This document shows positions 14,680 through 57,365 of a DNA stretch of 57,544 nucleotides, piece after piece. The position numbers and the translations under genes are program-made. Within the stretch, counting starts at the first letter, position 1. Each line of letters opens with the position of its first letter. The stretch is from an uncultured delta proteobacterium (GTDB taxonomy: Bacteria; Myxococcota_A; Polyangia; DRWM01; JAAZOP01). The stretch is taken from contig CAMTWF010000109.1 in the NCBI GenBank assembly GCA_947085355.1, positions 1 to 57,544 of the forward strand, read 5' to 3'. The notes below the pieces were generated by a model. The model had not been told where the DNA came from. It was given only the letters and a program-made list of their open reading frames with translations, and ran no database searches.

Positions 14680-14696
14680 GGGGGGGGGGGGGGGGG
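14680..14696. repeat. G17 homopolymer (C17 on the operon sense strand), 47-63 nt upstream of the helicase start codon
   Basis: Counted directly: g at 14680, ten g at 14681-14690, six g at 14691-14696. Confidence 0.9.
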
Positions 14697-14767: not shown

Positions 14768-14865
14768 ACCCGGTTCTTGTCAGCCGCCACCCGGTTCTTG
14801 TCAGCCGCCACCCGGTTCTTGTCAGCCGCCACCCGGTTCTTGTCAGCCGCCACCCGGTTCTTGTG
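14768..14865. repeat. 21-bp tandem array, 4 perfect copies plus a partial fifth (unit ACCCGGTTCTTGTCAGCCGCC)
   Basis: Perfect period of 21 with unit starts at 14768, 14789, 14810, 14831 and 14852. Degenerate relatives (cccggttct, atctccaggt) continue to ~15060. Confidence 0.95.
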
Positions 14866-15129
14866 ACGCATCTCCAGGTCTGCTCGATCCGCCTCCCGGT
14901 TCTCGGCGGCCACTTCCAGGATCGTGGAGACCAGCGTCGCATTCTTGCCGGCCATCTCCAGGTTCATGTCGACCGGCCATCCGTTCCTCGCGCGGCGTCA
15001 CCCGGTTCTCCCGCCTCGCCTCCGGCTTCGCGGGGCCCGGCTCCCGATTCACCCGGCCGACCGCTCCGTTCGCTGCCGGCGCTTCCGGGATCGTCCCGGG
15101 TGTTTCCTCTGATTTCCGGGGGGCTGTAG

Positions 15130-17913: not shown

Positions 17914-17946
17914 GTTTCGGGTTTCGGGTTTCGGGTTTCGGGTTTC
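17914..17946. repeat. Heptamer tandem array (GTTTCGG) x 4.7
   Basis: Read directly, downstream of the stop at 17891. Confidence 0.95.
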
Positions 17947-17952
17947 AAGCTG

Positions 17953-18027
17953 CTCCAAACTCCAAACTCCAAACTCCAAACTCCAAACTCCAAACTCCAA
18001 ACTCCAAACTCCAAACTCCAAACTCCC
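17953..18027. repeat. Heptamer tandem array (CTCCAAA) x 10.5
   Basis: Perfect period of 7 from 17953 to 18022, then ctccc. Confidence 0.95.
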
Positions 18028-23757: not shown

Positions 23758-24702
23758 GTGCGGAGGCGATCGATGCAACCGATTTCGGATTTCGGATTTC
23801 GGATTTCGGATTCCGGCACACCGCGGCTCGGCTGCGACGTGCGGCAGGCAGGTGGTGTTCCTCCAATCCGAAATCCGAAATCCGAAATCCGAAATCGCAG
23901 GTCCGGCCTGCTCGCTCTCACGGCGTTGGCGGCGGGAGGATCCGCGCACTGCGCGCCGACGGGCGGCGAGACCGCGTCGGGGCCGTCGTACGCCAGGTCG
24001 GCGGAGGAGAACTACGAGCGCGGAATGGAGGCGCTCGAATCGGACAACTGCGTCGACGCGCAGCGGTACTTCGAGCAGGTGATGCGGCGGTTCCCGTACA
24101 GTCGCGCGGCGACGCTGTCGAGGCTGCGGATGGCGGACTGCGATTTCGAGCAGGGTAACTACCGGGCGGCGGCGACGGGGTACCGGGGGTTCATCGAACG
24201 CTACCCGTCGGACGAGATGGTGGACTACGCGATGTTCCGCAGGGGGCTGTCGCACTTCGAGTTGATCCCTTCGTCGTGGTTCGTCCTGCCGGCGTCGCAC
24301 GAGCGGGATCAGACGCCGACGCGCGAGGCGCTGCGGGAGCTGCGCGAGTTCGTGGACCGGTTTCCGGCCAGCGCCCACGTCGACGAGGCGCGGGCGAGGA
24401 TCCGCGACTGCCTGGCCGAGCTGGCGCGGTCCGAGTTGTCCGTGGCGGAGTTCTACCTCGATCGCGGCCGGCCGGCCGCGGCGGCGCGGCGGGCGCGCGT
24501 CGTGCTGCGGGAGTACCCCGAGTCCGGCCTGGCGCCGGAGGCGCTGCTGATGCTCGGGATAGTCGCGCTCGACGCCGGCGACCGCGACGCGGCGCTGAGC
24601 TACTTCGGCCTGCTGGCCGCGCGCCACCGGGAGTCGCACGAGGCGTCGAGGGCGTTGCGCTACCTTCGGTTCATGCAGGGGACCGCCGAGGGGGGGGACT
24701 AG
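23758..24702 (+). CDS. bamD: Outer-membrane protein assembly factor BamD (YfiO) lipoprotein
   Basis: LLALTALAAGGSAHC is signal-like. It is followed by SAEENYERGMEALESDNCVDAQRYFEQVMRRFPYS..A..S.LRMADC.FEQGNY..A...Y..FI..YPS TPR-like repeats typical of BamD. No ATG/GTG/TTG lies just upstream of the signal peptide. The only in-frame starts (GTG 23758, ATG 23773) lie upstream of the hairpin repeat, so any N-terminus translated from them includes repeat-encoded residues; the start is uncertain. Confidence 0.8.
   Translation: MRRRSMQPISDFGFRISDSGTPRLGCDVRQAGGVPPIRNPKSEIRNRRSGLLALTALAAGGSAHCAPTGGETASGPSYARSAEENYERGMEALESDNCVDAQRYFEQVMRRFPYSRAATLSRLRMADCDFEQGNYRAAATGYRGFIERYPSDEMVDYAMFRRGLSHFELIPSSWFVLPASHERDQTPTREALRELREFVDRFPASAHVDEARARIRDCLAELARSELSVAEFYLDRGRPAAAARRARVVLREYPESGLAPEALLMLGIVALDAGDRDAALSYFGLLAARHRESHEASRALRYLRFMQGTAEGGD
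23781..23897. repeat. Inverted pair of heptamer arrays: (GATTTCG)x5 ... 49-nt spacer ... (AATCCGA)x4.7; potential long hairpin
   Basis: Arm 23781-23815 is the reverse complement of arm 23865-23897. Confidence 0.9.
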
Positions 24703-28321: not shown

Positions 28322-28383
28322 GTCGGCAGTCAGCATCGGGAGGAATGATACCTCGAAGCTGAGTGCTGACTGCTGACTGCTCA
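28322..28383. repeat. CAGTCAG/CTGACTG-family inverted heptamer repeat (hairpin)
   Basis: gtcggcagtcagcatc ... gggaggaatgatacctcgaagct ... gagtgctgactgctgactgctc. The spacer shares ggaggaat with the 29070-29139 copy. Confidence 0.8.
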
Positions 28384-28901: not shown

Positions 28902-29069
28902 GCGCAGGCGGTTGGCTCCATCCCGGTCGAGCCGTAGCGTGTACTCGATCTCGGGCGTTCCCGTCGATCCGGGACATGCGTCCCACCCGGACCATCTCCT
29001 CGGGAAGGAATGTAGACCACAGTCCGGCGATCTGCAAAAGGCCGCCTGTTGTCGATGCAGGAGCGCGAG

Positions 29070-29139
29070 CAGTCGGCAGTCGGCAGTCAGCAGTCAGCTT
29101 GGAGGAATCGTCCCTCCTGATGCTGACTGCCGACTGCTG
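29070..29139. repeat. CAGTCGG/CAGTCAG inverted heptamer repeat (hairpin)
   Basis: (cagtcgg)x2(cagtcag)x2 at 29070-29098, spacer ttggaggaatcgtccctcctgat, then gctgactgccgactgctg at 29122-29139. Confidence 0.9.
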
Positions 29140-44976: not shown

Positions 44977-45066
44977 ACGCCCGCCGGGGGACGCGGCGCC
45001 GTGCGCGGCGGCGGCGATGCGGGAGGGGTCCGGCGGCGATTGACGTTCGCCGTGCGGCCCGCGAAC

Positions 45067-46467
45067 ATGCGGTCGATGCGTTCGAATGCGGACGAGAAGG
45101 CGCTACTGGCCGCCGCCGAGATCGGCAGGCGGATAGGCCCGGACAAGGTCGTCGACGATCCCGACCTGCTGGCGCCGTACGGCGCGGACGAGTCGGGCCT
45201 GCCGCCGCGCGTGCCGCCCGCGGCGATCCGTGCCGAGTCGGCCGATGACGTCGCGGCGACGCTGGAGGCGGCCGAGCGGCGGCGCGTCGCGGTGACGCCG
45301 CGCGGGCGCGGAACGGGCAAGAGCGGCGGGGCGGTGCCGGTCGAGGGCGGGCTCGTCCTGCTGACGGAGCGGATGGATCGCATCGTGGAGATCGATCGGC
45401 GCGAGCGGATCGCCGTCGTGCAGCCCGGCATCGTGCTCGGACGGTTCCAGGATGCCGTCGAGGCCGAGGGGCTGTTCTACCCGCCGGATCCCGCGAGCCT
45501 CGACTCGTGCGCCGTGGGGGGGAACGTGGCCGAGAACGCCGGCGGACCCAGGGCGTTCAAGTACGGCGTCACCCGCGAGTACGTGCTCGGCATCGAGGTC
45601 GTGACGATGGGCGGAACGCGGATGCGCGTCGGGCGGCGCACCGCGAAGGGCGTGATGGGCTACGACGTCACCGCGCTGCTCGTCGGGTCCGAAGGGACGC
45701 TCGGCGTCTTCACCGAGGTCACGCTGCGCCTGCGATCCCGGCCGGCGGCGACCCGCACGATGCTCGCAACGTTCGCGGACGTGGTCGCCGCGGGCGAAGC
45801 GGTCCAGGACCTGCTGGGCCTGGGCCTCGTGCCCTCGGCGATCGAGATCCTGGACCGGACCTGCATCGAGGCGATCCGGACGGCAGGCCCGAATCCGATC
45901 CCCCAGGGCGCCGGCGCGGTGCTGCTCGTCGAAATCGACGGCCGGGACCCGGCGGCGGTCGATGCGGATGCGGAGACGGCCGGATCGGCGCTCGCCGAAC
46001 GCGCCGCCGACGTGCTGATCGCCTCGGATCCGGGACGCCGGAAGGCGCTCTGGACCGCCCGCCGGGAACTGTCGGAGACGCTCGGCAAGGGCCGGCTCGG
46101 CAAGCTCTCCGACGACGTCGCCGTGCCGCGCACCGCGATTCCGGCCGTCCTGCGCCGCCTCGCCGAGGTCGGCGAACGGCGCGGCGTGACGATGGCCACC
46201 TACGGGCACGCGGGCGACGGGAACCTCCACGTCAACGCCCTGTGGGACGACCCGGCGCTGGAGGCCGCCGCGCGCGGCGCCATCGAGGACGCGATGCGGA
46301 TCGCCCTCGAACACGGCGGGACGCTCTCCGGCGAGCACGGCGTCGGCGCCGCGAAGCGCGCCTACCTCGCATGGGAGCAGGGGACGCCGCTGATCGATCT
46401 CCAGCGCCGCATCAAGGCCGCATTCGACCCGCTGGGACTCATGAACCCGGGGAAGCTGCTGCCGTAG
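45067..46467 (+). CDS. FAD-linked oxidase (GlcD / D-lactate dehydrogenase family)
   Basis: V.PRG.GTG.SGGAVP..GG.VL....M..I.EID......VVQPG. (FAD_binding_4), LFYPPDP.S...C.VGGNVAENAGG.RA.KYG.T..YVLG.EVV and HAGDGNLH.N are the family motifs. Start placed at ATG 45067. Confidence 0.88.
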   Translation: MRSMRSNADEKALLAAAEIGRRIGPDKVVDDPDLLAPYGADESGLPPRVPPAAIRAESADDVAATLEAAERRRVAVTPRGRGTGKSGGAVPVEGGLVLLTERMDRIVEIDRRERIAVVQPGIVLGRFQDAVEAEGLFYPPDPASLDSCAVGGNVAENAGGPRAFKYGVTREYVLGIEVVTMGGTRMRVGRRTAKGVMGYDVTALLVGSEGTLGVFTEVTLRLRSRPAATRTMLATFADVVAAGEAVQDLLGLGLVPSAIEILDRTCIEAIRTAGPNPIPQGAGAVLLVEIDGRDPAAVDADAETAGSALAERAADVLIASDPGRRKALWTARRELSETLGKGRLGKLSDDVAVPRTAIPAVLRRLAEVGERRGVTMATYGHAGDGNLHVNALWDDPALEAAARGAIEDAMRIALEHGGTLSGEHGVGAAKRAYLAWEQGTPLIDLQRRIKAAFDPLGLMNPGKLLP

Positions 46468-47698
46468 CGCCGGACGGTCCTTCGAGAGCGACCACCGGGA
46501 AGCCGGTCCACTCGCGGACCATGCGGGCCTCCCGCTCCGTAGGCACGAGGACCATGGCGTCGTCGCGGGGCCATGCGGACAGATCCACGTCGCCCGCCGC
46601 GCGCCACTCGCGCTCGGCCGACCAGTCCACCCGCGGCGGCTCGTGAAGCTGGAACAGGTGGCGATCCGGTTCCGGCAGGGAGGCGTACAGCGAAGCGGGG
46701 CCGTACGCGACGGGGCGGATCCCGAGGCGCATGGCCGCGTCCCGGCGCAGGCCGACGGCATAGGGCTCGAAGGACCAGCGCACCAGGTGCCGCGCCCAGC
46801 AGGCGATGCGGGCGACCTCGGCCGGGTGCAGATCGGTCATGCAGACGACGCGATGACCGCCGCGGATCAGCCGGGAACCGGCGCGGATGACGCCGTCCGA
46901 GAGGATGCGGCGCAGCGTCTCGAACCCGTCGCGAACGCCGGGGCCGTCCGGCCGCAACAGACTGCCGACGTAGTCCCAGCGGCTCTCGCCGGGGTACTCG
47001 CCCCAGCGGCCGCGCGTGAAGTGCAGGAGGTAGTCCCGCCGGCCGACAAACACGGCGGACGGCCGTGCCTGCCGGCAGGCAGGCGGACGGCCGTGCCTGC
47101 CGGCAGGCAGGCGGACGGCGGACGGGAAAGGGATCCGGGCGCGGGAAGGCCGCGCTTCGGCCGGCTCGAACCAAGCCGCGGTCGGCAGCGGCGTCGCGCC
47201 GTCGTCGAGCAGGCGGGCGTTGCCCGCGGTGGAACGGGTCCCGTCCGGCGGACAGACGAGGACCGTTCGGCCGCGCCCGAGGCGCTCGCGGCAGATCGTC
47301 TCGACGACGCCGCCGGGCCTCGCCTCCGCCACTACGACCGCTTCCGCCGACTCCGAGATGCACAGGTCGCGCTCGGCCCGCGACGAGCGGGCGCCGATGT
47401 CGGCAACGACGCGGGCCCGCGGGTGGTTTGCCGCCTCCGGGTACCGGCGGGCGAGCGTCGCGGCGCCGCCGTCGGGTCCGCCCAGCGCGAGCAACGCCCG
47501 GCCGCCCGCATCCAGTGCGGCGCGGAGCGCCACGTCGTGGTGGAGGCACCCGATCCCGGCCACGAGGATTGCATCGGAGGACGCCGCCGTGCGCGCCAGC
47601 GCCGCGGTGAGGCGCACCCAGCGGTCGGCGGACGAGACCGCCCGCGGCTTGCGCGAGTTCAGCAGTGCGATGAGGGTCCCCGGCCGGAAGGGCGTCAC
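46439..47698 (-). CDS. Fusion ORF: DprA/Smf-like (SLOG Rossmann) domain, repeat-encoded linker, then AbiGi-like domain
   Basis: The N-part LIALLNSRKPR...ILVAGIGCLHHDVALRAALDAGGRALLAL...RAERDLCISESAEAVVVAEARPGGVVETI...GRTVLVCPPDG...GNARLLDDGATPL follows the DprA pattern (GSR.., SG.A.GID..AH.gAL..gG.tiAVL, RNR.i..ls..vvVvEa...SG.l.T, GR.VfAvPG...G.N.LI..GA). The C-part DYLLHFTRG...FETLRRILSDGVIRA...VVCMTDL...WSAEREWR..GDVDL...AMVLVP.E.EA resembles AbiGi (Pfam PF10899, from memory). There is no in-frame stop between the two parts. GTG 47698 is the chosen start, and the track ORF's extra 228 N-terminal codons are translated repeat or non-coding DNA. Confidence 0.6.
   Translation of the reverse strand: MTPFRPGTLIALLNSRKPRAVSSADRWVRLTAALARTAASSDAILVAGIGCLHHDVALRAALDAGGRALLALGGPDGGAATLARRYPEAANHPRARVVADIGARSSRAERDLCISESAEAVVVAEARPGGVVETICRERLGRGRTVLVCPPDGTRSTAGNARLLDDGATPLPTAAWFEPAEARPSRARIPFPSAVRLPAGRHGRPPACRQARPSAVFVGRRDYLLHFTRGRWGEYPGESRWDYVGSLLRPDGPGVRDGFETLRRILSDGVIRAGSRLIRGGHRVVCMTDLHPAEVARIACWARHLVRWSFEPYAVGLRRDAAMRLGIRPVAYGPASLYASLPEPDRHLFQLHEPPRVDWSAEREWRAAGDVDLSAWPRDDAMVLVPTEREARMVREWTGFPVVALEGPSGATAAASPGS
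47054..47125. repeat. 28-bp tandem duplication (GGCGGACGGCCGTGCCTGCCGGCAGGCA x2) plus (GGCGGAC)x2, each unit containing the 14-bp palindrome GCCTGCCGGCAGGC
   Basis: Units at 47054-47081 and 47082-47109 are identical. The repeat lies inside the DprA-AbiGi ORF, where it encodes ..AVRLPAGRHGRPPACRQARPSAV.. Confidence 0.95.
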
Positions 47699-47745
47699 GC
47701 GCGCCCGGTCGCGCCGCGGCGGGCCGCGTTGTGCCGCCGGAGTAA

Positions 47746-47892
47746 AACAGGATGAACAGGATGAACAGGAGGAGGAACGGCCTATCCGTGGAGTCTCTTG
47801 AACTCCAACTTGGGCATGACCTCGAAGCACGCGCCGATGATTTTCTCGGTCCTCATGCAACATCCCATCCTGTCTATCCTGTCCATCCTGTT
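47746..47892. repeat. Inverted pair of 9-mer arrays: (AACAGGATG)x3 ... 93-nt spacer ... (CATCCTGTY)x3
   Basis: Arm 47746-47772 and arm 47866-47892 are about 22/27 complementary. Confidence 0.85.
47782..47856 (-). pseudogene. 24-codon remnant resembling the N-terminus of a GxxExxY-type (PD-(D/E)XK-like) small protein, inside the spacer of the inverted 9-mer arrays
   Basis: MRTEKIIGACFEVMPKLEFKRLHG* compares with the remembered family start ..TEKIIGaaieVh..LGpGfLE.vY. It stops before the GxxExxY motif. Confidence 0.4.
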
Positions 47893-47949
47893 TGTCCCCA
47901 TACCTGCCGGAAACTTGCGGGATCCGCGGAAGCGGCGTAGAAACGCCGA

Positions 47950-49359: not shown

Positions 49360-49424
49360 CACCACAGAGACACGGAGATCACGGAGAAGAATCGAATCTC
49401 TGTGTCCTCTGTGTCCCTGTGGTG
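49360..49424. repeat. CACAGAG/CTCTGTG-family inverted heptamer hairpin between the convergent PHP and recQ genes (terminator-like)
   Basis: caccacagagacacggagatcacggaga - agaatcgaa - tctctgtgtcctctgtgtccctgtggtg. Same family as 34813-34874. Confidence 0.9.
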
Positions 49425-49436
49425 AATCTCACGACT

Positions 49437-51644
49437 TCATGGGCGCTCCGCGGGGGGCGTGTGCTTCTGCCGCCACCGGGCCATCGCCAGGCGGATCTCG
49501 TCCCACGTGAAGTCCGCCGGCACGGCGGACTTCACCGGGGACAGGAAGACCGTCTCCCCCGTCTTCTCGACCGCTTGCTCGATCGCCGCGGCGCGATCCG
49601 CGGGGACCTCGGACGAGATGTCGACTGTCTCCCCCTCGTCCATGCAGACGACGAGGTGGCTGACGATCGTCGAGCGGGCCAGGTCGCGATCCTCGGCCAC
49701 CGCCGCGATGCTCCCCAGCCGCCTCCAGGCATCGAGCGTAACGCGGGCGGAGGGGTTCCTCGGGGCCGCGGGCGCCGCCGTGGCGGGTTTCGGCGCCTCC
49801 GGACGCCGCTTCGTCGCGTCGGGCAGGCGGATCGCGACGTTCGCGCGCTTGAACATCACCTCGCGGCCGAGCGGCGTGATCTCCACCTTCGGGTACTGGG
49901 TGTCGGAGAGGTTCACCGCGACGCAGCCGACATCGATCATCTCGTCGAGGATGGCCTCGATCGTCTCCTGGCGCATGTGGCGGAGGAGTCCGTACGTCGA
50001 GAGGCGGTCGAGTTTCCACTCGATGAGCTTCTTCTCCTGCGACCCGCAGAGGACCTGGACGACCTTCGCCTTCCCGAACCGCCCGGCCATCCGGGCGACG
50101 CATGAGAGGACCTTCTGGATGAGGACGACATCGTCCTCCGTCGCCTCCCGGCGCCCCGCGTGCCGGGTCTCCTCGCACGCATCGCAGGCCGGGCAGCGCG
50201 TGGGGGTGGAGGGGTCGCCGAAGTACGACAGCAGGTACCCGCGCCGGCAACCTCGGCTCCACGCATAGGCGACGATTCGCGACAGGCGCTCCTCGTCGTT
50301 GGCGCGCTTCGCCTCCGTGCGGCGGAAGTCGATGGCGAGCTTCCCGCGCTCGACGAGCCTCACGCGGACGGCGCCCTCGTCCTCGGGGCCGCCGAGGCGG
50401 ACGAGGTGCCCCTCCCGTTCGAGGAGCTTGATGCAGGACTCCGCGGTCGCGGAGCGGACCTTCCCGGGGAGCTGTTCCGCGAGCCGTTCGAGCCAGACGT
50501 CCTGGACGTCTTCCCTGGAGGAGGTCAGGATCCGCCAAGCCGCCTCGACGACGGCGCGGCGGGGGTTGGCGAGGTCGACGAAGAACTCCTGGGTCCGCGT
50601 GTCGGCCTGGTTGAAGAGGAGGGTGCACGTCGCGGGCTCGCCGTCGCGCCCGGCGCGGCCGGCCTCCTGGTAGTACGACTCGACGCTCCCGGGGACATCG
50701 TGGTGAAGGACGGCGCGGATGTCGGGCTTGTCGATCCCGAGGCCGAAGGCGTTCGTGGCGACGATGACGGGGGCGTCGTCGGCCATGAACAGGTCCTGGA
50801 CCTCCCTGCGGCGCGCGTCGCGGAGGCCGGCGTGGTACCCGACGGCGGGGATCCGCTCGACGCGGAGGATCTCCACGACGCGCTCGACGTTCTTGCGCGT
50901 CGCGCAGTAGACGATCGCGGAGCCGCGGCGGGCGGGCTTTCCGTCCTTGACGAGGCCGAGGCGGTGGACGGTCTCGACGATCTCAGCGATCTTCTCGTCG
51001 TTTCCCCCGACCCGGCGGACTCGGAGGAAGAGGTTCTTCCGGTCGAACCCGACGAAGAACTCGCGCGTCTCCGACGTGAAGAGCTGGGCGCGGATGTCGT
51101 CCTTGACGCGCGGCGTGGCCGTGGCGGTGAACGCGGCCACGGGCGGGCGGCCGACGCGATCGACGGCGTCGCGGATCTTCATGTAGTCGGGGCGGAAGTC
51201 GTGCCCCCACTGGCTGATGCAGTGGGCCTCGTCGACGGCGAGGAGGGAGATCTCGGCCTTCGCGAGGGCGGCGAGGAACCGCTCGTTCTTGAACCGCTCG
51301 GGGGCGACGTAGACGAGCTTGTAGGCGCCCCGCGCGAGTCCCTGGAGGCGGTCCCACGCCTCCTCCATGTCGAGGGCGCTGTTGATGAACGTGGCGGGAA
51401 GGCTGCGCTCGGTGAGGCCGTCGACCTGGTCCTTCATGAGTGCGATGAGCGGCGACACGACGAGGGTGACCCCGGGGAGGAGGAGGGCGGGGAGCTGGTA
51501 GCAGAGGGACTTCCCGCCGCCGGTGGGCATGACGACGAGAGCGTCCTTGCCCGCGAGGAGGGTCTCGACGACGTCCCGCTGCCCCTCGCGGAACGCGTGG
51601 AAGCCGAAGTGCTTCTTGAGGGCCTCCTCGAGGTCGATCGACAT
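49437..51644 (-). CDS. recQ: ATP-dependent DNA helicase RecQ (735 aa) with a C-terminal HRDC/wHTH extension
   Basis: FGF..FREGQ..V......GKD.LVVMPTGGGKSLCYQLPAL, LAVDEAHCISQWGHDFRPDY, AFTATAT, IVYC.TRK, ATNAFGLGIDKPD.R.V.H.D.P.S.E.YYQE.GRAGRDG. The Zn cluster is CRR..LL.YFG....C..CD.C. Start is ATG 51644. Confidence 0.95.
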   Translation of the reverse strand: MSIDLEEALKKHFGFHAFREGQRDVVETLLAGKDALVVMPTGGGKSLCYQLPALLLPGVTLVVSPLIALMKDQVDGLTERSLPATFINSALDMEEAWDRLQGLARGAYKLVYVAPERFKNERFLAALAKAEISLLAVDEAHCISQWGHDFRPDYMKIRDAVDRVGRPPVAAFTATATPRVKDDIRAQLFTSETREFFVGFDRKNLFLRVRRVGGNDEKIAEIVETVHRLGLVKDGKPARRGSAIVYCATRKNVERVVEILRVERIPAVGYHAGLRDARRREVQDLFMADDAPVIVATNAFGLGIDKPDIRAVLHHDVPGSVESYYQEAGRAGRDGEPATCTLLFNQADTRTQEFFVDLANPRRAVVEAAWRILTSSREDVQDVWLERLAEQLPGKVRSATAESCIKLLEREGHLVRLGGPEDEGAVRVRLVERGKLAIDFRRTEAKRANDEERLSRIVAYAWSRGCRRGYLLSYFGDPSTPTRCPACDACEETRHAGRREATEDDVVLIQKVLSCVARMAGRFGKAKVVQVLCGSQEKKLIEWKLDRLSTYGLLRHMRQETIEAILDEMIDVGCVAVNLSDTQYPKVEITPLGREVMFKRANVAIRLPDATKRRPEAPKPATAAPAAPRNPSARVTLDAWRRLGSIAAVAEDRDLARSTIVSHLVVCMDEGETVDISSEVPADRAAAIEQAVEKTGETVFLSPVKSAVPADFTWDEIRLAMARWRQKHTPPAERP

Positions 51645-51764
51645 GGCGGGCAGGATATTGCCGGCGTGTCCCGCCGGTCCAGCATCCTCCCCCGTCCCGG
51701 AGTCGCGCCCGCGCCGAGTTGGAGTCGCGCCCGTGGGTGTGTCCCCTTGAACGACCACGGGCGC

Positions 51765-57121: not shown

Positions 57122-57196
57122 CGGGGCGTAGCGCAGCCTGGTTAGCGCACCAGACTGGGGGTCTGGGAGTCGGTGGTTCAAATCCACTCGCCCCGA
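57122..57196 (+). tRNA. tRNA-Pro (anticodon GGG)
   Basis: Hand-folded. Acceptor CGGGGCG/CGCCCCG, D-arm GCGC-AGCCTGGTTA-GCGC, anticodon stem CCAGA/TCTGG with loop CTGGGGG. T-arm GGTGG-TTCAAAT-CCACT, discriminator A. No encoded CCA. Confidence 0.9.
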
Positions 57197-57307
57197 CAAG
57201 TCCTTCGGCGTGGGACGCCGGCGCCGCGTCACACGCGGCATCTGCGGGCGCATCCGCGATTTGTGGGGGGGCCGGCGCAGCCGTTCACGGCCCCGGCTGC
57301 AGCCTCC

Positions 57308-57365
57308 CGCCTGCCTGCCCTGCCTGCCGGCAGGCAGGCGGCAGGCAGGGCAGGCAGGCGGACGG
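57308..57365. repeat. GCCTGCC/GGCAGGC palindromic repeat downstream of tRNA-Pro, related to 47054-47125
   Basis: ccgcctgcctgccctgcctgcc-ggcaggcaggc-ggcaggcagggcaggcaggcgg, followed by acgg. It shares gcctgccggcaggcaggcggacgg with the 47-kb copy. Confidence 0.9.

Follow-up and report, generated by a model that had tools for sequence, protein, structure and literature searches.

A DprA-like domain joined to an AbiGi-like, predicted ADP-ribosyltransferase domain in a family of chromosomal bacterial proteins

What might a bacterium do with a protein that unites, in a single chain, a relative of DprA and a relative of the abortive-infection protein AbiGi? The question is raised by a gene on contig CAMTWF010000109.1 (assembly GCA_947085355.1) of an uncultured delta proteobacterium; the whole stretch analysed, 57,544 nucleotides (nt) long, is referred to here as the window, and the gene and its product as the target gene and the window protein. 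An initial annotation, made from the sequence without database searches, took the gene for a candidate single-gene abortive-infection or defence protein whose two halves might have been joined, or be interrupted, by a short tandem repeat. In the answer developed below, the target gene is an intact member of a large family, and its product has about an even chance of being a stand-alone chromosomal enzyme, namely an ADP-ribosyltransferase (ART) that depends on nicotinamide adenine dinucleotide (NAD+) and is targeted or regulated by a DprA-like module. The gene is divided as follows.

46439..47698, minus strand: whole coding sequence, 419 amino acids, GTG start (open reading frame (ORF) call, homologue alignment, AlphaFold2 (AF2) model).
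47168..47698, minus strand: N-terminal domain, residues 1–177, predicted DprA-type SLOG Rossmann fold (Foldseek, profiles, conservation).
47042..47167, minus strand: inter-domain linker, residues 178–219 (AF2 predicted local distance difference test score (pLDDT) below 50, alignment gaps, ratio of nonsynonymous to synonymous substitution rates (dN/dS)).
46484..47041, minus strand: C-terminal domain, residues 220–405, AbiGi-like, predicted ART fold (AF2, hhalign, motifs).

The target gene is one intact gene. The minus-strand ORF that ends at 46439 is open from the GTG at 47698 and encodes 419 residues, and in alignment the closest homologue, P0001, shares the start MTPFRP with the window protein. 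The domain order is DprA-like domain, disordered linker, AbiGi-like domain. The full-length AF2 model has a pLDDT of 78.5 and a predicted template modelling score of 0.75. The motifs that had been picked out at the outset (YLLHFT.., VVCMTD, EREWR/GDVDL and MVLVP) can each be located in the protein, as YLLHFTR, VVCMTD, EREWRAAGDVDL and MVLVPTEREA.

Sequence comparison shows homology of the C-terminal domain to AbiGi-like proteins, and every residue expected of an R-S-ExE-type ART is retained in it. Modelled alone it reaches a pLDDT of 87.6. A diverse alignment of the fused family's C-terminal domains (A2), used as a search profile, recovered the stand-alone proteins P0251–P0256 of ~200 residues, with P0253 at E 1.1e-21. 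P0253 itself lies above the Pfam AbiGi (PF10899) threshold, at 33.8 vs 22.4 bits; its family comprises 264 matches, including Vibrio and Solimonas proteins, and 33 of the 120 listed have a precomputed PF10899 match. When A2 is aligned by hhalign with an alignment of this stand-alone family (A4), the probability is 99.9% and E is 1.4e-34 over 167 columns. LxHxTR, VCFSE/VVSFT, RPVIY and ExEWRxxGDLDL fall in register, and motif III (see below) is aligned with THEREWR of the stand-alone proteins. The A2 match to P0253 and the A2–A4 alignment place the domain in the AbiGi-like superfamily; at this level the earlier AbiGi assignment stands, and at the level of the Pfam threshold it does not (11.2 vs 22.4 bits). 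Three motifs carry the putative catalytic residues.

47012..47023, minus strand: motif I, H226-F-T228-R229, end of predicted beta1 (conservation, AF2 secondary structure).
46835..46843, minus strand: motif II, C286-M-T288 ([S/C]-x-[T/S]), end of beta2, followed by a helix (conservation, model).
46601..46615, minus strand: motif III, E362-R-E364-W365-R366 (E-x-E), start of a beta strand (conservation, A4 alignment).

Conservation of these motifs was counted in 160 fused-family representatives that are less than 50% identical to one another. In motif I the histidine is present in 160/160, the threonine in 156 and the arginine in 159. Position 1 of motif II is S in 125 and C in 32 ([S/C] in 157), and position 3 is T in 137 and S in 23, together accounting for all 160. 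Both glutamates and the arginine of E-x-E-W-R in motif III are invariant, with the tryptophan in 157 sequences; a tyrosine (155/160) and a glutamine (157/160) are conserved in addition. The window protein retains H226, T228, R229, C286, T288, Y332, Q350, E362, E364 and R366. The pattern of the R-S-E clade of ARTs (R in beta1, S-x-S/T in beta2, E/Q-x-E in beta5) is found in the window protein and in the family, and in the predicted model the motif residues occupy positions that correspond to the layout of R-S-ExE ARTs. AbiGi (PF10899) has been listed among the ART-like families of this clade (PMC12522546; preprint 10.1101/2024.07.30.605764), and a CxS variant of motif II is described in an AbiGi-related family (PMC12522546).

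Structure searches with the C-terminal domain give weak matches to the PDB, the top ones being enriched in ART-fold enzymes: Arr (2hw2, 9iaf, 9iba), exotoxin A (1aer), and the nucleic-acid-directed Tpt1/KptA (9ldi, 8tg4, 8tfi, 8tg3, 1wfx). As these Foldseek matches are non-significant, the ART assignment rests on the motifs and on the published remote-homology work. Against BFVD the matches are borderline (E ~1.5e-3) and fall on uncharacterised, unnamed phage proteins. A match of the HxTRxCP..PGQ segment to human cytomegalovirus UL131A, obtained in PDB sequence-profile searches with the whole protein and with the C-terminal domain (E 0.02–0.1), was rejected as chance.

The N-terminal domain is modelled mostly with pLDDT values of 85–97, and the model points to a DprA-type SLOG Rossmann fold with DprA as the closest relative. 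In a Foldseek search with the full model, DprA ranks first at a probability of 1.0 (3uqz, E 6.7e-7; 3maj, 2.2e-6; 4ljk, 4ljr and 5mll, ~1e-5; the weakest DprA structure, 5e-5), followed by ShosA (8zva, E 3.9e-5) and then by MoCo-carrier proteins (MCP) and LOG. All of these matches are confined to the N-terminal domain, and as matches to solved members of the SLOG superfamily (SMF/DprA-LOG fold) they assign the domain to it. A profile of the N-terminal regions of long family members aligns block for block with the whole Rossmann domain of Streptococcus pneumoniae DprA (3uqz), at E 0.02. Conserved residues include S15-R16 (in NSRKPR), W27, G50, R110-D111, R127 and G130.

At the level of individual protein families the relationship is looser. 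The NCBIfam DprA match of the window protein has E 0.0084, and its 15.3 bits to NF008007 miss the DprA equivalog level (TIGR00732 / NF008007, 191 / 495 bits); ten relatives have at most 32.8 bits against the 191 required, or no match. One relative, P0020, lies above the threshold of Pfam PF02481 (DNA_processg_A; 34.7 vs 29.6 bits) and another, P0068, scores 27.6 bits, so that homology of the window protein to PF02481 is supported only transitively, via relatives. The signatures of DprA are altered in the family: GSR becomes NSRKPR, RN becomes RD, and SG[ST]xxT becomes GGNxER. Because of these alterations, and of scores far under the equivalog cut-off, the domain is best regarded as DprA-like but not DprA. 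The original DprA (SLOG) assignment is thus upheld for the superfamily, through the Foldseek matches to DprA, and lapses for the PF02481 and equivalog cut-offs, which the window protein misses.

The same two-domain architecture recurs far beyond the window. A whole-protein search returned 17 full-length homologues, 34–87% identical to the window protein, from metagenome-assembled genomes of Myxococcota or 'Deltaproteobacteria'; their alignment shows conservation of both halves and variability in the linker alone. A profile of this alignment, searched against 1.84 billion cluster representatives, gave 2490 matches at E<=1e-3, of which 1364 have E<=1e-30, with both domains (profile positions ~3–395) covered in most of the best 150 representatives. 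These 150, together with close homologues, make up the 160 sequences analysed, 98 of which have an N-terminal extension of more than 80 residues. A genome scan with one genome per species located a relative at 68 loci, in Myxococcota, Desulfomonilaceae, Syntrophaceae, Thermodesulfobacteriota, Zixibacteria, Glassbacteria and, most numerously, Planctomycetota. Cultured planctomycetes with a relative are Rhodopirellula baltica, R. europaea, Stieleria marina, Aporhodopirellula rubra, Roseiconus, Schlesneria paludicola and Pirellula staleyi; with R. baltica, S. marina, S. paludicola and P. staleyi among them, genetics and biochemistry are feasible.

In all loci uncut by a contig end the relative is a single two-domain ORF, except in L023 and L028, which look frameshifted. 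Homologues divided into a DprA-like and an AbiGi-like ORF were observed in L077 (7159–8004/8001–8777, with a 4-nt overlap), L023 (9932–11273) and L028 (9620–11873); all three are long-read-type assemblies, and the divisions could be natural splits, pseudogenes or homopolymer errors. The initial annotation had proposed a search for the fusion without its repeat linker in other genomes, allowing that the homologues might always be two separate genes. Such fusions are found in the 17 homologues and the 68 loci, and continuous two-domain ORFs prevail. Judged from these sequences, the fusion is ancient and widespread, and the family appears to be mostly vertically inherited. Its members are labelled 'hypothetical' in all sources, an annotation gap for a large, uncharacterised family. 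No paper that connects AbiGi with DprA or SLOG came up in a literature search; two comparative-genomics reviews lay outside it, and an earlier description is possible. What is new is the way in which two known superfamilies are combined in one architecture.

The linker of the window protein, and the DNA that encodes it, differ from the domains on either side. Residues 178–219 are predicted to be disordered, and the corresponding segment is variable, both in length and in sequence, in every homologue. The coding DNA contains the following element.

47054..47119, no strand assigned: perfect tandem repeat, 28 base pairs (bp) x2.4, with palindrome GCCTGCCGGCAGGC (Tandem Repeats Finder).

The 28-bp unit, GGCGGACGGCCGTGCCTGCCGGCAGGCA, is repeated with 100% matches, in agreement with the tandem repeat around a palindrome first described there. 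The palindrome occurs three times in the window (47067, 47095 and 57322) against 0.09 copies expected, and three copies were reached in 0/100 shuffles. The third copy also confirms the related repeat reported beside tRNA-Pro at 57.3 kb: it lies inside a long GCCT/GGCA palindrome ~110 nt downstream of tRNA-Pro (57122–57197). The imperfect palindrome of GCCT/GGCA 4-mers at 57308–57362 has the 20-nt sequence GCCTGCCGGCAGGCAGGCGG in common with the linker repeat. This shared sequence suggests a small family of palindromic repeat elements that may be able to insert into coding DNA.

The history of the repeat can be read from the contig L006, on which P0001, 87% identical to the window protein, is encoded in the same gene order (PHP – X – GlcD). 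The DNA on either side of the linker is ~97% identical between the two contigs. The linker differs; that of the window is 42 nt (14 codons) longer, and the 28-bp array is absent from L006. Estimated from few substitutions (dS 0.05–0.09), dN/dS between the two is ~0.46 and ~0.49 in the N- and C-terminal domains, respectively, and ~1.7 in the linker. On this comparison, the 28-bp repeat is a recent, lineage-specific in-frame insertion into a disordered, freely evolving linker. The unit length of 28 is not divisible by 3, so the copies of the repeat are read in different frames. In simulation, the gain or loss of one copy causes a frameshift that uncouples the C-terminal domain, and the repeat is a possible slippage hot spot. 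In the window the reading frame is intact on both sides of it. The idea that the repeat had created or interrupted the fusion was not borne out, given 17 close homologues with the same two domains and no repeat; as an origin of the fusion the repeat was rejected, with repeat-free fusions in these homologues, in most of the best 150 of the 1364 representatives and in the 68 loci. Nor is a separate AbiGi-like protein starting at GTG 47053, another early suggestion, needed, because the homologues are continuous ORFs.

At its 3' end the target gene meets a gene for a GlcD-like oxidase that uses flavin adenine dinucleotide (45001–46467, plus strand).

46439..46467: convergent 29-nt overlap between the 3' ends of the target gene and the GlcD-like oxidase gene.

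This overlap had been noted before, and an identical one is present between the homologue and the GlcD-like gene of L006. The guanine-plus-cytosine content of the target gene, 0.74–0.76, equals that of its flanks. Repeat DNA beside the gene, also part of the initial description, takes the form of an inverted pair of 9-bp tandem repeats upstream (47745–47770 / 47868–47893), which flanks a short ORF tail ...EKIIGACFEVMPKLEFKRLHG; the tail looks truncated, and we take it to resemble the N-terminus of GxxExxY proteins. The gene order in the window is fructose-1,6-bisphosphatase, hypothetical, GlcD-like oxidase, target, PHP-domain protein, RecQ, 1301-residue hypothetical, MerR regulator, tRNA-Pro.

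Is there a partner gene that could reveal the function? All ORFs from 70 non-redundant loci were clustered, and no conserved partner emerged, with no neighbour family present in more than 11 of the 70 loci. Conserved neighbours are clade-specific only; within a clade, synteny with housekeeping genes is stable. In 11 planctomycete loci, mostly of Pirellulaceae (L044, L049, L052, L055, L059, L061, L064, L067, L070 and L073 among them), nadA, which encodes quinolinate synthase of NAD biosynthesis, lies 10–110 nt downstream on the same strand, and NadA is 76–86% identical within this subclade. In ten loci of Desulfomonilaceae/Syntrophaceae type (L014, L015, L017, L018, L020, L021, L023, L027, L028 and L077 2827–9613), a RodZ-like gene and a 121-residue ORF lie upstream, with a divergent comEC 1.6–2.6 kb upstream; ComEC identity across them is 38–70%. 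L077 also has the prepilin peptidase gene pilD directly downstream of the homologue, with ftsZ, ftsA, ftsQ and mur genes near, so that several transformation or pilus genes share one neighbourhood there. The nadA linkage fits a use of NAD+, and comEC and pilD fit a biology of single-stranded DNA (ssDNA) or transformation. Other annotated loci contain unrelated housekeeping genes. At a single locus, L001 (1–7814), an AAA_15/AAA_21 ATPase, a 1782-residue DEAD/Helicase_C/MZB helicase and a VWA/TSP3 protein are encoded upstream of the homologue, a possibly defence-like cluster.

Defence was also addressed directly. The target protein matches 0 families of PADLOC-DB 2.0. Among the ten neighbours scanned, the MerR regulator weakly matches one short model (mad1, E 1.7e-4), and RecQ is recognised by DpdF and PsyrT, two models of RecQ-like helicases. 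This RecQ (49437–51758, minus strand; DEAD, Helicase_C, RecQ_Zn_bind, RQC and HTH_40 domains) reaches E 4.5e-165 with them. As a canonical RecQ is matched and no other Dpd or Psyr component occurs among the ten neighbours, the DpdF and PsyrT models evidently cross-match a housekeeping RecQ. The candidacy of RecQ, two genes away, as a PsyrT-like partner was rejected: it has the canonical RQC, HTH_40 and Zn-binding set, and does not figure among the neighbours that are conserved. In IMG/VR (2.9 million viral contigs), neither alignment found the fused family. The stand-alone AbiGi-like family (A4) is present there on 40 viral or prophage contigs (L079–L118).

Neighbouring AbiGii, TIR or macro-domain genes were not seen around the target gene or in seven annotated loci. 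The gene therefore does not form an AbiG system, which has an adjacent AbiGii, its neighbours being the GlcD-like and PHP genes; nor do the window and the seven loci show the arrangement of Thoeris, in which a SLOG effector lies beside a TIR-domain ThsB. The original defence reading has found no contextual support, whether in PADLOC, in the synteny of the 70 loci, in IMG/VR or in the native base composition, and the proposed look for defence islands around homologues turned up none that is conserved, the neighbours being housekeeping genes (nadA, comEC–rodZ, PHP/GlcD). There is no sign of a mobile phage-defence gene, although a single-gene system can sit anywhere. The occurrence of an Abi-family domain in stable chromosomal genes is a caution against reading Abi matches as defence genes.

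Comparison with known systems helps to define what kind of protein this may be. With DprA/Smf (PF02481; TIGR00732) the family shares the SLOG Rossmann fold and the order of sequence blocks over the whole S. pneumoniae DprA domain, and one member exceeds the Pfam cut-off. It differs in scoring 15–33 bits vs 191, in its altered signatures, in lacking the C-terminal winged helix and in its ART-like fusion; the window protein, a short form, also lacks any N-terminal extension. AbiGi (PF10899), the first gene of the lactococcal two-gene AbiG system, was compared through PF10899 relatives and has the H-x-T-R, C/S-x-S/T and E-x-E-W-R motifs in common with the C-terminal domain. Unlike AbiGi, the window domain is not stand-alone, has neither an AbiGii partner nor a plasmid or prophage setting, and scores 11.2 vs 22.4 bits.

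Among SLOG proteins in conflict systems, ThsA of Thoeris (SIR2-SLOG) similarly combines SLOG and an NAD+-utilising domain in one polypeptide, which hints at a possible logic of ligand-gated NAD+ consumption (PMC7272460, PMC11204291). In the window protein the two domains stand in the opposite order, with a SLOG domain of DprA type and a partner that is ART-like rather than SIR2, and no ThsB/TIR gene is seen nearby. ShosA of ShosTA is a DprA-like protein in a conflict system and a Foldseek match, as given above. The window has no ShosT phosphoribosyltransferase partner and no PADLOC match, and its protein has a different C-terminal domain. Among ART-fold families, DarT has been linked via DUF2971 to AbiGi in one survey (PMC12522546). 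DarT of DarTG, an ssDNA thymidine ADP-ribosyltransferase, acts on ssDNA, the ligand expected for a DprA-like module. Here the comparison is made by description and with a target that is only presumed, and no DarG macro-domain antitoxin is encoded beside the target gene. By analogy, the protein may be most like a hybrid of DprA, as a binding module, with DarT or another ART that acts on nucleic acid; alternatively, its logic may be that of ThsA.

The reading given at the outset, of an NAD+-dependent ART under the control of a DprA-like module, can be expressed as a series of steps. The DprA-like module would bind single-stranded nucleic acid or a nucleotide ligand; this binding would target or gate the C-terminal domain; and that domain, predicted to be an active enzyme, would ADP-ribosylate a nucleic-acid or protein substrate using NAD+. 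The protein would be a self-contained enzyme, neither half of an AbiGi/AbiGii pair nor part of a mobile defence island. A more specific version, put forward here tentatively and with low confidence, is a hitherto unrecognised enzyme of housekeeping type whose substrates would be nucleic acid or recombination proteins, with the DprA-like module delivering an AbiGi-type ART to incoming (transformation) or replicative ssDNA and NAD+ being consumed in the ADP-ribosylation. If true, this version would account for the comEC/pilD and nadA neighbourhoods, and would provide the first biochemical function for the AbiGi fold. It also allows that, at the window locus, slippage of the non-triplet linker repeat could reversibly uncouple both domains. 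AbiGi is a classic lactococcal Abi protein of unknown mechanism (PMC13064643), for whose fold the fused family offers a testable hypothesis, namely NAD+-dependent modification directed by ssDNA or nucleotide binding.

Several points weigh against this picture. Neither half of the window protein reaches its Pfam family directly: PF02481 gives no match at E<=10, and the PF10899 threshold is missed at 11.2 bits (E 0.37), as it is by the best fused-family member (15.1 bits). When the C-terminal domain is compared with the PDB by Foldseek, no match reaches significance (best E 0.32, template modelling scores of 0.2–0.3), which agrees with a 2026 review in which the AbiG mechanism is unknown and AbiGi is without a significant PDB fold match (PMC13064643). 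Instead of binding ssDNA, the N-terminal domain could sense a small molecule, by analogy with ThsA, or act as an enzyme, by analogy with LOG. The neighbourhoods with nadA and with comEC are each confined to a single clade and could be coincidental synteny, and the dN/dS values draw on few substitutions.

These points leave room for other explanations, each of which accounts for part of the evidence. The protein might be a single-gene abortive-infection or defence protein, in which SLOG responds to ssDNA of a phage, or to a nucleotide that is phage-derived or serves as a signal, and switches on the ART-like domain; by analogy with ThsA or DarT, that domain would then use up NAD+ or modify targets of the phage or the host by ADP-ribosylation. 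The homology to AbiGi-like proteins, whose stand-alone forms occur on viral and prophage contigs, speaks for it, as do the SLOG/DprA-like domains of ThsA and ShosA, with 8zva among the matches, and the ATPase and DEAD/MZB helicase that adjoin the L001 homologue. We nevertheless consider it rather improbable: target and non-helicase neighbours lack a PADLOC match (the weak mad1 one aside), no conserved partner and no TIR, macro or AbiGii neighbour is seen in the annotated loci, housekeeping synteny is stable over a divergence as deep as that of ComEC, the base composition is native, and the fused family is absent from the viral contigs. A divergent DprA-type recombination mediator in transformation or ssDNA processing, in which the AbiGi-like domain has replaced the winged helix and plays an interaction or regulatory role, would agree with the match to DprA in fold and motif order, with the position of the N-terminal extension in long forms, which sits where DprA has its SAM-like domain, and with comEC upstream in the ten Desulfomonilaceae-type loci and pilD downstream in L077. 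It seems unlikely, however, in view of scores of <=32.8 bits against the cut-off of 191, the replacement of GSR by NSRKPR and of SG[ST]xxT by GGNxER, and competence-gene synteny in one clade only; the invariant putative catalytic residues of the C-terminal domain also argue for an enzyme over a scaffold.

An enzyme of NAD/ADP-ribose or nucleotide metabolism, combining a LOG-like SLOG hydrolase with an NAD+-using domain and acting on a soluble nucleotide with no macromolecular target, is decidedly unlikely. LOG and MoCo-carrier proteins are significant Foldseek matches too, and nadA follows immediately downstream in the 11 planctomycete loci, but DprA structures outrank LOG, and the nadA link is limited to one subclade of closely similar NadA proteins. 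The PGGxGTxxE signature of the LOG family is not among the conserved positions here, which we also count against such an enzyme. Least credible by far is an artefact, in which an assembly or sequencing error at the repeat has merged two genes. A copy-number error in a unit whose length is not a multiple of 3 would shift the frame, and some homologues (L023, L028, L077) look split; yet continuous two-domain ORFs occur in ~70 independent loci without the 28-bp repeat, and the frame of the window is intact on both sides of it.

Repeats are not restricted to the target gene in this stretch of DNA. Intergenic pairs of short (7–9 bp), near-perfect tandem repeats in inverted orientation, each pair with its own unit sequence, also occur at 23781–23816 / 23865–23896, 28358–28381 / 29068–29098 and 49363–49387 / 49398–49421, and further at 17914–18026. 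Two small ORFs of ~88 residues lie between the repeats of the 28.4/29.1 kb pair. A run of 17 G at 14680–14696 is followed, at 14768–14903, by a perfect 21-bp x4.6 tandem repeat (ACCCGGTTCTTGTCAGCCGCC) inside a 63-bp x2.2 array.

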